Shown here piece after piece: positions 1,033 through 18,266 of a stretch of 64,000 nt of DNA (the stretch's first letter is position 1; every line of letters begins with the position of its first letter). Source of the DNA: a bacterium (GTDB lineage: Bacteria > UBA10199 > JACPAL01 > GCA-016699445); the NCBI GenBank assembly GCA_035454885.1, contig DATIGE010000056.1, forward strand, positions 9,290 through 73,289. The letters are read 5' to 3'. The notes under the pieces are model-generated. The model ran no database searches, was not told the DNA's origin, and saw only the letters and a program-made list of their open reading frames with translations. Both the position numbers and the translations under genes were made by a program.

Positions 1033-1060
1033 GCAACCTTTGGGACCCCTCCGCGATAAT
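1033..1060 (+). promoter_or_regulatory. cluster promoter motif copy 1 (sigma-28-like -10): GCAAC-N15-GCGATAAT
   Basis: GCAAC is at 1033-1037 and GCGATAAT at 1053-1060, 58 nt upstream of ATG 1118. Spacing and both blocks match seven further copies in the cluster. Confidence 0.5.
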
Positions 1061-1117
1061 GCTTTCAGTCAGCATTGAAGGGGATTTGTAAATTTTAATA
1101 TTTTAGGAGGGATCGTC

Positions 1118-3067
1118 ATGAGCATTAACATCACCGTCAGGCCCAGCGGGGCAACGTCGGGCGGAGACAGCAGAACGATCGAGGGCGAAGGCGCCATCGA
1201 CACCCGGGCCGAGGCTGAAGCGGCATTGACGCTCCTCCCCGAGGGAAGCACGAACGTGGTGGTCGCGGGCGACCGGACCTACACCCGCGAGCAGCTCATC
1301 GAAATCCGTGATCGCGCCCCGGCGGCTGCGGCCCCAGTTGCGGCAGACCGCGGCACGACGGCGGCGGACGGCATGGCCAACGGCGTCGAGCTCCAAGGCT
1401 ATTACGGCGGAGGCGTCGGTTCCAATCCCCACGACGGCGGCGGCGCCCGTCTCTCCTGGGTCCCCAGCTGGCGGGCCGCGGGCGACGAGCACACCTTGCA
1501 TTTTGACCTCCCGGTTGGTCTCGATATCGGCCACTTCAGCATGGGTTACACGCTCCCCGGCGGCGGAGACGCCAATTCGGCGTTCACGCGCTACGGGTTG
1601 CGGGTCGCCCCCACCGCGCGTTGGGTCCCGCCCTGGGCGGACCGGCGGCTTTCGCTCTCTTTGGGCTTAGGGCTGGGCGTCGGAGGTTTCACCACGGCGG
1701 ACAGCACGATGGTTTCCGTTCCGACCACCTGCACGCCGGGCGATTTCGGCCGCGGCGAGTGCGAACCGGACGCGGGTCCGCGCACGGGCAACGGCGGAAC
1801 GACCGGTCTCTTCAATCCCCGCATCGGCAATTCGCGCGGGACGAGCGGCGCTTATTTTGATATCGGCCTTCCCCTCACCTTCGGCGTCAACTTCGCCCGC
1901 GGTGATTGGGGCAACGTCGGCGGCTTCTTGAGCTTCGAACCGGCCTACACGCACATGATGCCCGGCGACGGCGACGGCTTCGGTTTCTGGTCCATGCGCG
2001 GCGGCTTGGGCATCCGCGGCACCTTCGGCGGCAGTTCCGTCGAGCGTCCGCGCCGGCCGGCCGGACCGACCATCGAAGATGCGCGCACCCATTCCACCGA
2101 AATTCCGGGGGGCGCCGCCTTCACCCTCGCGGATGACGCGGCCGTGCGCACCTTGGGCGGCCTGGGCGCGAACGCCCGCATCCTGGGCGTCCAGCTCGAC
2201 GACCATCCGGAAGACACCAGCGCTCCTTATACGTTCGACGCGGCCTGGATGACGCCGGGAGCGCACACGATCAAGATCCGTTATCGGAACCCGGGCGACA
2301 CGGAAGACCGCATCCGCCCGGTGAACATCACGGTCGGAACTCCGGCCCCGGTCAGCGTTCCGGAAGGGGGAACGGGCGAGGCCTTCGGATTGGTCCTCGA
2401 CATGCCCAGCACCGCGACCCGACCGGCGCCAGACGTCGTAGGCGGCGTTTCAACGCCGCGCCCGGTCCGGGTCGGAAGGATCACGACGACCTCGAGCTTC
2501 CCGGAGGGCGCGACCTATCAGATCTACGTGGACAGCAATCCCGTCGGCTCGGCCGCGGACCTTCCGCGCGACCGCGCGACGGAACTGACGGTCCCCGCGA
2601 CCATCGGTGACGGGGATCATCAGATCGAGGTCCGAGTCAGCCGTCCCGGCATGGCGGAGATCCGCTACCCGGCCCGGGCGGTCCGCGTCGGACCCGGTGT
2701 CGCTACGCTGAGCGCCGCGAGCGTTCCTTCGAATCCTCCGAGCGGCGGCCACTACTACAATGACCCGATCCGCGTCACGGTGACGAGCGATGTCGCGACC
2801 CGCGCCCGGATCACGGTCGGATCGCACACGGAAGACGTGAACCTGGTCGTCGGAGTCAACACGATCACGATGACCGGAGCCCCGAGAACCTGGACCACCG
2901 GCGGAGCCGCCGGACGGTCGACCCAGACGGTGCGTATCCAGCCGCTCGACGCGGCGGGCGCCCTGACGGGAACGGCCGTGGAAGCGGGATCGGTTGTCAT
3001 CCGCAGGGCGGGCGGTGGCCACAGACGATCGCCCACCACGACCAGGCCCGCGCGTCCGCTCCCGTAG
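1118..3067 (+). CDS. hypothetical protein X (649 aa): Gly/aromatic-rich central region plus three Ig-like beta-sandwich-looking repeats
   Basis: AGGAGG lies 7 nt upstream of the ATG. No N-terminal signal peptide (MSINITVRPSGATSGG). Residues ~90-330 are Gly/aromatic-rich with alternating hydrophobicity (LSLSLGLGLGVGGF, YFDIGLPLTFGVNF, FLSFEPAY). The C-terminal ~300 aa contain three similar ~90-aa segments (PYTFDAAWMTPGAHTIKIRY; ATYQIYVDSNPVGS..GDGDHQIEVRV; YYNDPIRVTVTS..GVNTITMTG). I recognise no characterised family. Confidence 0.7.
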   Translation: MSINITVRPSGATSGGDSRTIEGEGAIDTRAEAEAALTLLPEGSTNVVVAGDRTYTREQLIEIRDRAPAAAAPVAADRGTTAADGMANGVELQGYYGGGVGSNPHDGGGARLSWVPSWRAAGDEHTLHFDLPVGLDIGHFSMGYTLPGGGDANSAFTRYGLRVAPTARWVPPWADRRLSLSLGLGLGVGGFTTADSTMVSVPTTCTPGDFGRGECEPDAGPRTGNGGTTGLFNPRIGNSRGTSGAYFDIGLPLTFGVNFARGDWGNVGGFLSFEPAYTHMMPGDGDGFGFWSMRGGLGIRGTFGGSSVERPRRPAGPTIEDARTHSTEIPGGAAFTLADDAAVRTLGGLGANARILGVQLDDHPEDTSAPYTFDAAWMTPGAHTIKIRYRNPGDTEDRIRPVNITVGTPAPVSVPEGGTGEAFGLVLDMPSTATRPAPDVVGGVSTPRPVRVGRITTTSSFPEGATYQIYVDSNPVGSAADLPRDRATELTVPATIGDGDHQIEVRVSRPGMAEIRYPARAVRVGPGVATLSAASVPSNPPSGGHYYNDPIRVTVTSDVATRARITVGSHTEDVNLVVGVNTITMTGAPRTWTTGGAAGRSTQTVRIQPLDAAGALTGTAVEAGSVVIRRAGGGHRRSPTTTRPARPLP

Positions 3068-3128
3068 TATTGGACGGTCGACTCCGGGTGACTGATGCAA
3101 GCACGATGGTGAAGAATGGAGAGTATTT

Positions 3129-16984: not shown

Positions 16985-17026
16985 CAAAACGGAGCCTCAC
17001 TCTTTCGAACAGTCAACGGAGGTCAT

Positions 17027-18193
17027 ATGTCTGGAGAACTGTGCAGCGATTATACGGCAACAAAAATGGCGGAAGGGCTTTGCTTGACAGCGGCACAACA
17101 CCCGCTCGGTGAACTCTACCTCTATGCGAACGGCCGCGTTGCCGACATCAAGGAAGTATCCGGCGATAAGGTCACCTTTGCGGGTCCAACCGGACAGGGC
17201 CGATACGACTTGGAAGGCGTCACCCCAGACTCCCTGGAGAATACGCGGAAGATGCAGGGCGCGGAGGTGGGCGATTGCTCGGCCCAGGGCGGCAGCGTCT
17301 CCTTCGAGATCCTACCGACCGACAGCGGCATCACCTGGACGGCCAAGGATCAGATCGCCCTCAGTCGTATCTTTGGAGACCGAGTCGGCCGCGCCTTTCT
17401 ATGTTCGGACCCCCACAATCAGGGCACGATCGGCATCAACACGAGCAAGGCCTTCAATACCCAACTCATCCGGGGCTTCAAAAAACTTCAAAGCGAATGC
17501 TCCTCTCTCCTGGGCGAAGGTTCCGCCGACAAATGCGCCGCCTTGAAGGGCGTCGCTAATCTCTACGTGCCAAAGGGCGAGCAATCGACCGGGGAAAAGA
17601 TCAAGGCGACCGCGATATATATCCTCGGCGGTATCTTCGTCTTTGCCGTGGGCGGACTCGCGGCCCACATCCTGGGCAATTGGTGGAACAACCGCGGCGG
17701 CGGCCCGAAGCCTCCGTCCGGAGGCGGTGGAGGCGCGAACGATCTGGCCGCCGTGGCGAGTCTCCTTGCGGCACTGGCCGCAGCCGCAAATGGGCTGAAA
17801 AATGCCCCTCCCTCGTCCCCCGCTCCCGGATCCCCGCCGGAAGGCCATCCCCGCGTTTCCTTCCCGTCTGAGCCCACGGAGATCCGCGTGACCGGACGGG
17901 GCACCTCCTGGGAGGAATACGCCGCCGGGGCGACGATCTTGGTCGCGACCGCCTTCCTCCTTCACAAGGCCGGAAAAGGAAGGGCCGGGGGCGTCGTCGC
18001 GGAGGAGGGCGTCATGGCGAGCTTCCGCCGTGTGGCCTCGCGTTACGCCATGCCGGCCGCCGCGGCGGCCGCCGGGGCCGTCGTCCTCATGAACCTTCCG
18101 AATGATGCCCAGGCCGCGCCCAATGGTGGCGGCACGGGCACGCAGGTCCAGAAGAACAAGGCCACGCTCGAGCTGTATGGAGGCTCCGAATAG
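17027..18193 (+). CDS. family A paralogue 3 (388 aa)
   Basis: GGAGG RBS. The N-terminus MSGELCSDY plus GRVADI, AGPTGQG, VGDCSAQG, ITW, AFLCSD, TM helix AIYILGGIFVFAVGGLAAHIL and WWNNRGGGPKPP align with paralogues 1 and 2. The tail is unrelated and Ala/Gly/Pro-rich. Confidence 0.8.
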   Translation: MSGELCSDYTATKMAEGLCLTAAQHPLGELYLYANGRVADIKEVSGDKVTFAGPTGQGRYDLEGVTPDSLENTRKMQGAEVGDCSAQGGSVSFEILPTDSGITWTAKDQIALSRIFGDRVGRAFLCSDPHNQGTIGINTSKAFNTQLIRGFKKLQSECSSLLGEGSADKCAALKGVANLYVPKGEQSTGEKIKATAIYILGGIFVFAVGGLAAHILGNWWNNRGGGPKPPSGGGGGANDLAAVASLLAALAAAANGLKNAPPSSPAPGSPPEGHPRVSFPSEPTEIRVTGRGTSWEEYAAGATILVATAFLLHKAGKGRAGGVVAEEGVMASFRRVASRYAMPAAAAAAGAVVLMNLPNDAQAAPNGGGTGTQVQKNKATLELYGGSE

Positions 18194-18237
18194 GGCAAAT
18201 GTATCCAATAGTTAACGATTAATTTTTATTTAAAAAG

Positions 18238-18266
18238 GCAACATCCTTGACGATTCGACCGATAAT
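18238..18266 (+). promoter_or_regulatory. cluster promoter motif copy 8: GCAAC-N16-CCGATAAT
   Basis: GCAAC is at 18238-18242 and CCGATAAT at 18259-18266, with a spacer one nt longer than in the other copies. It lies 22 nt upstream of ATG 18288, with AT-rich DNA upstream. Confidence 0.5.

Follow-up and report, generated by a model that had tools for sequence, protein, structure and literature searches.

A putative promoter with a FliA-type -10 block and a GCAAC -35 element precedes the transcription units of an ORFan gene cluster

A 64-kb stretch of bacterial DNA (positions 9,290 to 73,289 of contig DATIGE010000056.1, assembly GCA_035454885.1; below, "the window" is this whole stretch of 64,000 nucleotides) contains a cluster of ORFan genes whose predicted transcription units are each preceded by a promoter-like motif of 28-29 nt, in which a GCAAC pentamer and a GCCGA(T/A)AAC block are kept at a fixed distance. 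The described promoters closest to this motif are those read by sigma-28 (FliA) and by extracytoplasmic function (ECF) sigma factors. A table of E. coli FliA sites obtained by chromatin immunoprecipitation and sequencing lists tar with TAAAGTTTCCCCCCTCCTTGCCGATAAC, fliD with ..GACCGATAAC, fliA with ..TGCCGATAAC and flgKL with ..TGCCGATAAT (PMC4183435). In the open complex of P. aeruginosa sigma-28, GCCGATAA occupies positions -15 to -8 and TCTAAAG positions -36 to -30, and the authors of the structure treat the GC dinucleotide as an extended -10 element (PMC12784957). The targets of FliA are flagellar and chemotaxis genes, whereas the motif described here precedes ORFans without a Pfam, NCBIfam or PADLOC match. 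Factors of the FliA family can also serve developmental, non-flagellar genes, as do Streptomyces WhiG and Chlamydia sigma-28, which use a -10 of the GCCGATAA type; these differ from the present case in that the TAAA -35 is retained and the regulons are small and partly characterised.

In Bdellovibrio bacteriovorus, a FliA-like motif, TTAAG-N16-CCGATA, precedes 92 of 140 mapped attack-phase promoters, and many of the genes are uncharacterised (PMC3627812). This regulon resembles the one proposed below in that a sigma-28-type motif extends beyond flagella to lineage-specific and surface-protein genes in a former 'deltaproteobacterium', but its -35 is TAAAG-like, its fliA is known and expressed and its transcription starts have been mapped. 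Among ECF factors, S. coelicolor sigma-E reads sites such as CGCAACC-N16-CGTCTT and TGCAACC-N16-CGTCTG, with a -35 of nGCAAC or GGAAC and without conservation of the bases before CGT (PMC6767563), and Caulobacter sigma-F, which recognizes GTAACC-N16-CGAA, is an ECF factor with a CGA-type -10 (PMC3511200).

The cluster (1118-24268, plus strand) comprises eleven co-oriented genes, and eight copies of the motif lie within it or at its edge, all intergenic and oriented as the genes are, with the strand and coordinates given in an earlier sequence-only reading of this DNA. The first copy, at 1033-1060 (GCAACCTTTGGGACCCCTCCGCGATAAT, i.e., GCAACCTTT-N10-CGCGATAAT; 20.8 bits with the weight matrix described below), precedes the unit of 1118-3067 and 3129-4811. 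The second, at 4903-4930 (ACAACATTTTCAATTTTCCGCCGAAGAG, i.e., ACAACATTT-N10-GCCGAAGAG), precedes 4956-9026 and, with its ACAAC..GCCGAAGAG variant, has the lowest score of the eight (16.6 bits), in line with its earlier designation as the weakest. These are followed by a copy at 9100-9127 (GCAACGTTCGCGCCTTACGGCCGAAAAC, i.e., GCAACGTTC-N10-GCCGAAAAC; 26.3 bits) ahead of 9174-10151, and by three copies of the form GCAACATTTC-N9-GCCGATAAC, each of 33.1 bits, at 10259-10286 (unit 10318-11403 and 11460-13193), 13227-13254 (unit 13278-15053) and 15144-15171 (unit 15214-16827). The last two are found at 16957-16984 (GCAACATTTC-N9-GCCGAAAAC; 30.7 bits) ahead of 17027-18193 and, with a spacer longer by one base, at 18238-18266 (GCAACATCC-N11-ACCGATAAT; 20.7 bits) ahead of 18288-21338 and 21335-24268.

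Octamer and start codon are separated, in the same order, by 58, 26, 47, 32, 24, 43, 43 and 22 nt, which bears out the range of 22-58 nt proposed earlier. The proposal of fixed spacing with one exception also holds, N15 being found in seven of the eight sites and N16 in the remaining one, as does that of three exact octamers, since GCCGATAA is present at 10259, 13227 and 15144; the letters of the spacer and of the flanks vary between copies. Three genes of the cluster are without a copy and, as had been pointed out, they are those closely joined to the upstream gene, which they trail by 61 nt, by 56 nt and by a TAATG overlap. An intrinsic terminator at 4840-4873 on the plus strand (GCCGCCCCGGC-CCAAC-GCCGGGGCGGC followed by TTTTTTT, with an 11-bp stem) closes the 1118-4811 unit just before the second copy, and a strong one at 16854-16882 on the same strand (13-bp stem with 10 GC pairs, then a T run) closes the 15214 unit before the copy at 16957. 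That the presence of the motif tracks the length of the intergenic gap, and that terminators part at least two of the units, supports the reading of the motif as a promoter.

The one claim of the sequence-only reading that has to be corrected is that no copy was noticed in the other 40 kb. A ninth copy exists at 54576-54549 on the minus strand (GCAACCTTTACGCGTCTCCGCCGAAAAA, i.e., GCAACCTTT-N10-GCCGAAAAA; 23.2 bits), outside the cluster, between the stop codon of clpB and a singleton ORFan of 412-439 aa (53223-54542, minus strand), for whose product zero relatives were found among 5.8 billion sequences. There are two candidate start codons for this gene: GTG at 54542, which follows the octamer at 7 nt, with its G as the 8th base, and TTG at 54461, which has a GAGG Shine-Dalgarno sequence and is the one chosen in the public gene call. 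By sigma-28 numbering, GTG 54542 sits at +1, so the messenger RNA could be leaderless.

In the window, which has a G+C content of 62%, the loose pattern CAAC-N15/16-CGAWAA was matched 8 times where 0.44 matches are expected (an enrichment of about 18-fold), and 0 of 100 dinucleotide-preserving shuffles reached 8 matches. Either half-motif by itself is weakly enriched, which means that the signal resides in the pairing of the halves at a fixed distance. A two-block matrix trained solely on sites of other organisms, outside the window, recovers all eight cluster sites, at 16.6-33.1 bits, together with the ninth, while the top score in a reversed-sequence control under the same matrix is 11.9 bits. 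A further match to the loose pattern, at 63237 on the minus strand, scores below 10 bits with the matrix and was taken as chance. A scan of viral contigs with a two-block pattern of the right spacing gave two chance-like, coding-like sites, at three loci, two of which overlap.

Conservation per position was calculated from 27 curated sites in six loci, many of which are orthologues or paralogues of one another and hence non-independent. The consensus consists of an A/T-rich upstream region (the 20 nt before the motif), GCAAC-nTTT, a C-rich spacer of 14 nt (sometimes 15) and GCCGA(T/A)AAC. The pentamer, the TTT two bases on and the -10 block carry 1.0-2.0 bits per position, including 1.25-1.39 bits at the GC positions ahead of CGA, and the spacer, which is merely C-rich, carries about 0.05-0.7 bits per position. 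In the pentamer the consensus bases G, C, A, A and C are found in 23, 25, 27, 25 and 27 sites, respectively; 25 sites have GCAAC, GAAAC or ACAAC, and the remaining two GCATC or ACATC. The octamer is exactly GCCGATAA in 17/27, the base equivalent to -7 is C in 23/27, and a G stands 9 nt past the octamer in 23/27.

The six related loci were found through relatives of the 13278-15053 protein and of the 3129 protein: L001/L026 (the 535-kb JGI contig Ga0172278_1366), L002, L016, L018, L019/L020 and L021, the last being contig DASUFF010000165 of the NCBI metagenome-assembled genome (MAG) GCA_036274695.1 (bacterium SMAG_U1372). The motif stands ahead of cluster genes in every one of them. The proteins encoded by these clusters are 37-61% identical to those of the window, with closer relatives in L016 and L019, and the N-terminal half of the 3129 protein is about 78% identical to its two nearest relatives. 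The flanking sulfite/nitrite reductase of the NirA type (24269-26431) is 81-86% identical, a marked contrast in rate within one syntenic block, which indicates that the cluster is chromosomal, syntenic and fast-evolving.

Individual copies can be followed across these loci. The blocks of the first copy are nearly identical in its orthologues at L021 7660 and L026 7872. The non-consensus variant of the second, ACAAC..GCCGAAGAG, recurs without a change at L021 15829, where the flanks differ. Orthologues of the third copy are found at L016 1696, L018 781, L021 20226 and L001 8600, that of the fourth at L016 5036 and that of the fifth at L019 957. In an alignment of the sixth from five species, CGCAAC, TTT and CCGATAAC are invariant and the spacer and surroundings have diverged. 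The eighth copy has orthologues at L001 14686 and L002 6131 in which the spacer is longer too and GAAAC replaces GCAAC. In L019/L020 the homologue of 15214 starts 14 nt behind its neighbour, and the motif is absent. L021 also contains a minus-strand copy (GCAACTTTT-N10-CGCGATAAG) 45 nt ahead of the ATG of a 1070-aa protein with thrombospondin type-3 (TSP3) repeats. Since the blocks are fixed across species at a constant spacing and the spacer and flanks diverge, the interpretation as a two-block sigma-factor promoter and not a repeat, already put forward from the window alone, is strengthened. The presence of the motif before unrelated genes, the retention of the 4903 variant and the loss in L019/L020 speak for function rather than shared ancestry, and the unlinked copies (54576 on the minus strand and the TSP3 gene of L021) show that the motif marks a regulon extending beyond a cluster.

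The resemblance to sigma-28 promoters turned out to be closer than had been claimed. The -10 block of E. coli FliA, GCCGATAAC, equals the block of the window at 9/9 positions, and E. coli FliA sites (TAAAGTTT-N11-GCCGATAAC) share their 28-nt frame with those of the window; GCAA-N15-GCCGATAA coincides with the TAAA-N15-GCCGATAA frame in 7/8 of them. The consensus GCCGAtAAC is that of the E. coli tar, fliA and ves sites, and even minor variants of the -10, such as those of fliD (ACCGATAAC) and flgKL (GCCGATAAT), are common to both sets. A T-tract follows the -35 pentamer here as it does in the FliA TAAAGTTT. In FliA promoters of E. coli and P. aeruginosa, transcription starts about 8 nt past the octamer, and a similar position is expected here. 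Nevertheless, the -35 element of FliA promoters is TAAAG and that of the present motif GCAAC, with only AA in common, and on this element membership of the motif in the FliA promoter class fails. The sequence-only reading had noted that GCAAC is not TAAA and recalls the AAC of ECF promoters; the pentamer does share AA with TAAAG, and GCAAC does occur in ECF sites. By these comparisons, the motif is a hybrid of a FliA-type -10 block and an ECF-type -35.

What protein may read such a hybrid was addressed by a search for sigma genes. RpoE and FliA of E. coli and SigW of B. subtilis were used as tblastn queries against the window and about 250 kb of related loci, and one sigma-family gene was found, at 58830-59738 on the plus strand, with 3e-10 for the E. 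coli FliA query. This gene is rpoH (sigma-32): its product matches TIGR02392 rpoH_proteo with 338.5 bits against a cut-off of 323.1 and contains Sigma70_r1_2, r2 and r4. RpoH is ruled out as the cognate factor on consensus grounds, for sigma-32 promoters read CTTGAA-N13-15-CCCCATnT and the motif, as read from the sequence, has neither CTTGAA nor CCCCAT. In the window, L021 and L026 a sigma gene was also sought upstream of the cluster, and none was found; this position is taken by a divergent TSP3-repeat gene in the window, by TSP3 genes and an ORFan of 1687 aa in L021 and by an ORFan of 1674 aa in L026.

From the observations described above we infer that the sites are very likely promoters of an alternative sigma factor of one family or another. 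Which family this is can be said with much less confidence; the sequence-only reading, too, had hedged between a divergent group-3 and an ECF sigma. We consider it possible, at somewhat less than even confidence, that the cognate factor is a group-3 protein of the sigma-28 family with an altered -35 specificity, because the -10 block is long and letter-perfect, including the extended -10, because the frame is identical and because Bdellovibrio provides a precedent. Several facts weigh against this assignment in addition to the deviating -35 and the non-independence of the sites. TAAAG of sigma-28 promoters is conserved across Proteobacteria, Firmicutes, Actinobacteria, Chlamydiae and spirochaetes. 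The tblastn search, which covered the window and about 250 kb of related loci, detected no fliA/whiG-type gene. The nearest named relatives, judged by NirA, are bacterium SMAG_U1372 (86%), Myxococcota bacterium MAG_483 (76%) and Deltaproteobacteria bacterium MAGs (56-65%), which carry Myxococcota or Deltaproteobacteria labels, and classical myxobacteria are not known to have flagella or FliA. Finally, GCAAC/GGAAC with an invariant AAC is a hallmark of the -35 of ECF promoters. Alternatively, then, the cognate factor may be an ECF (group-4) sigma, whose domain 4 would read GCAAC and whose domain 2 would read a CGA-type -10, the likeness to FliA being incidental. This is only a little less probable. 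The A at position 3 and the C at position 5 of the pentamer are invariant and an A is found at position 4 in 25/27 sites, the distance from AAC to CG is 16 (17) nt, as is usual for ECF promoters, and the known or likely targets are membrane or secreted proteins (proteins with internal transmembrane helices and the TSP3 protein of L021), just as ECF targets are often envelope proteins. ECF factors are the most numerous and most lineage-specific of sigma factors, notably in Myxococcota-like genomes, and their abundance adds to this alternative, as does the fact that flagella are without support in this lineage. However, the CGA core at AAC+16/17, though in itself compatible with an ECF -10, is part of a block conserved over 9 positions and letter-identical to that of FliA, while the -10 elements of S. 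coelicolor sigma-E and Caulobacter sigma-F promoters are shorter. Conservation of the two bases before CG is unusual for ECF promoters, where these bases are unconserved, and in sigma-28 their recognition involves a domain absent from ECF factors. Moreover, although ECF genes often adjoin their targets, the window and the surroundings of the cluster in L021, L026 and L016 revealed no ECF-like gene, and neither an ECF/anti-sigma pair next to the cluster (window, L021 and L026) nor an autoregulated sigma gene (window and related loci) was seen. On balance, we lean slightly towards a factor of the sigma-28 family.

Other readings have much less in their favor. The housekeeping sigma-70 was rejected because there is no TTGACA and C takes the place of -7 in 23/27 sites where sigma-70 needs T; a sigma-70 scan called none of the sites and gave no enrichment in the cluster, and in the same window rpoH and htrA do have canonical TTGACA-N16/17-TAT(A/T)(A/T)T promoters (TTGACA-N17-TATATT for rpoH). 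By eye, neither strand has the GG element of a sigma-54 site (TGGCAC-N5-TTGC) at the right distance. A repeat or mobile element resembling repetitive extragenic palindromes or miniature inverted-repeat transposable elements was set aside because the spacer and flanks differ and the copies are co-oriented, 22-58 nt before start codons. It could still be argued that the blocks are operators of a regulator, or an activator site combined with a weak sigma-70 -10 (GATAAT/GATAAC), given that GATAAT matches TATAAT at 5/6 and GATAAC at 4/6 positions with GCAACA 16 nt upstream, and that extra conserved elements nearby (GTTAAC boxes and a 19-nt tandem element, see below) point to additional regulators. 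We regard this as improbable: the blocks are not palindromic and do not form a direct repeat, the final base of the would-be hexamer is mostly C (23/27 sites) at a position where sigma-70 requires T, the invariant sequence just upstream is CCG and not the TG of an extended -10, the sigma-70 scan calls none of the sites, and the spacing and the distance to the start codon fit the geometry of a -35/-10 promoter. More improbable still is that the similarity is merely inherited with paralogue upstream regions and has no present function. The copies at 10259, 13227, 15144 and 16957 do precede two paralogue families and share flanks (aaacGCAACATTTC..., ...AACcaaaac), but the motif also precedes the unrelated genes 1118, 4956, 18288, 54542 (minus strand) and the TSP3 gene of L021, the blocks have stayed fixed between species at about 50% protein identity as spacer and flanks changed, and spacers differ even among the paralogues of one genome. 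By these patterns, simple inheritance is already largely refuted.

If the sites are promoters, RNA polymerase carrying one dedicated alternative factor of the sigma-70 family would read all of them, its domain 4 contacting GCAAC(nTTT) at about -34 to -26 and its domain 2, probably with domain 3, contacting GCCGA(T/A)AAC at about -15 to -7. Transcription would be expected to start about 8-9 nt past GCCGATAA, at the conserved G. Each unit of the cluster would be served by its own copy, in some cases behind an intrinsic terminator, and further copies would serve one or more unlinked ORFans and the gene of a secreted TSP3-repeat protein in a relative, so that a single factor, once released or made, would fire the whole set in parallel. 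With a sigma-28-type factor, the -35 specificity would have shifted from TAAAG to GCAAC and the factor would have been recruited to non-flagellar, lineage-specific genes, much as FliA has been in Bdellovibrio. It is conceivable, but on present indications unlikely, that such a re-specified sigma-28 factor is the master switch of a fast-evolving ORFan arsenal in a Myxococcota/'deltaproteobacterial' lineage, driving an effector-like or life-stage programme from an undescribed hybrid class of promoters. The arsenal so envisaged, speculative to the same degree, would consist of ORFans that are devoid of signal peptides and partly membrane-anchored, with Fic and toxin-antitoxin genes inserted in relatives, and would be comparable to the attack-phase regulon of Bdellovibrio. 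The type of regulation is itself familiar, and nothing is overturned by it. If confirmed, it would tie eleven clustered ORFans and unlinked ones into one regulon in a lineage known from metagenomes alone and would make the motif a testable handle on otherwise opaque genes. The identity of the factor would reveal either the way in which a protein of the sigma-28 type comes to recognize a different -35 or the way in which a long FliA-like -10 can be read by an ECF factor.

The genes of the cluster fall into three singletons (1118, 3129 and 4956) and three paralogue families (9174/10318/17027, 11460/13278/15214 and 18288/21335). None of the eleven proteins has a match in Pfam, NCBIfam or PADLOC, and none has an N-terminal signal peptide; a hydrophobic segment scoring as a transmembrane helix is present in 5/11, among them the whole 9174 family. 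For the 13278 family, 10 relatives were found in 5.8 billion proteins, and a profile search run exhaustively against 1.84 billion clusters returned 58 representatives; no Pfam domain was found in the ten representatives tested. A search of genome contigs with one ORFan protein yielded no match. AlphaFold (AF2) models of two families have a mean predicted local distance difference test (pLDDT) score of 54 and 61; helical sub-domains are modelled with confidence, and a fold search of the PDB with the two models returned no match. By eye, the 1356-aa protein encoded by 4956-9026 contains five or six internal helical repeats starting with ..RYP(A/V/S)F.., and the paralogues of about 1000 aa encoded by 18288-24268 contain repeated ..LIQRYA/LVRRYG.. 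units; these internal repeats suggest that a repeat module may be shared among otherwise unrelated ORFans.

The contrast between about 40-60% identity for the cluster and 81-86% for the flanking reductase suggests that the products act at the surface or as effectors and are under diversifying pressure; surface exposure or an effector-like role, shaped by diversifying selection, is our guess. Foreign genes have also entered the cluster in relatives. A Fic-domain gene lies in the cluster of L001 at 5670-7208 (the same as L026 11877-13415), behind a terminator of its own and an A/T-rich upstream region in which the motif is missing. The L018 cluster has a PIN/HTH_17 toxin-antitoxin pair at 1900-2603 and the L021 cluster a PIN gene at its edge, at 21324-21629; L021 also has duplicated or fragmented copies of cluster genes.

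At the other side of the cluster, the window begins with a gene for a secreted protein with thrombospondin type-3 (DxDxDxD) repeats (1-870, minus strand), which runs off the window start and is divergent from the cluster; SMAG_U1372 has two TSP3-repeat genes in the corresponding region (L021 1-2215), one of them with the regulon motif. A 1169-aa fusion protein encoded at 33016-36525 on the minus strand combines a Ser/Thr protein kinase with TPR, GAF, a sigma-54 activator AAA+ domain and a Fis-type helix-turn-helix, an architecture that appears to fit a Myxococcota/Deltaproteobacteria neighbourhood; an opposite-strand open reading frame of similar size, without a Pfam match, overlaps it. In the heat-shock locus (54577-59738), rpoH on the plus strand is divergent from htrA/degP (57169-58686) and clpB (54577-57165) on the minus strand, and it is overlapped, and thereby masked, by a minus-strand open reading frame of 266 aa. 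Rfam and tRNA scans of the window found two tRNAs only.

Other sequence elements accompany the putative promoters. All five GTTAAC hexamers of the window (15059, 15110, 15119, 16917 and 18211) are located in three intergenic regions of the cluster, where they precede the GCAAC pentamer by 25-40 nt and about 85 nt, and the same distances are found at L016 4945/8218/8278/10078, L019 873/933, L002 6094 and L018 2694/2718. GTTAAC may be a site of an additional regulator for a subset of the promoters. Upstream of the 9174 promoter, at 9067-9104, there is a 19-nt tandem element, CATTTCTACCTCG / CATTCCTACCTCG (9067-9099); at its end, GTTGC..GCAAC forms an inverted pair that involves the -35 pentamer, and tandem GTCGCAATTTTACCTC units occupy the equivalent place in L016 (about 1650-1700) and L018 (about 730-785). 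The element could represent an operator or decayed copies resembling the -35. In L021 (about 7700-7760) and L026 (about 7920-7965), the first cluster gene has a leader with a GC-rich hairpin and a T run (GCCGGGC..GCCCGGCTTT) that resembles a terminator or attenuator and is deleted in the window (1061-1117).

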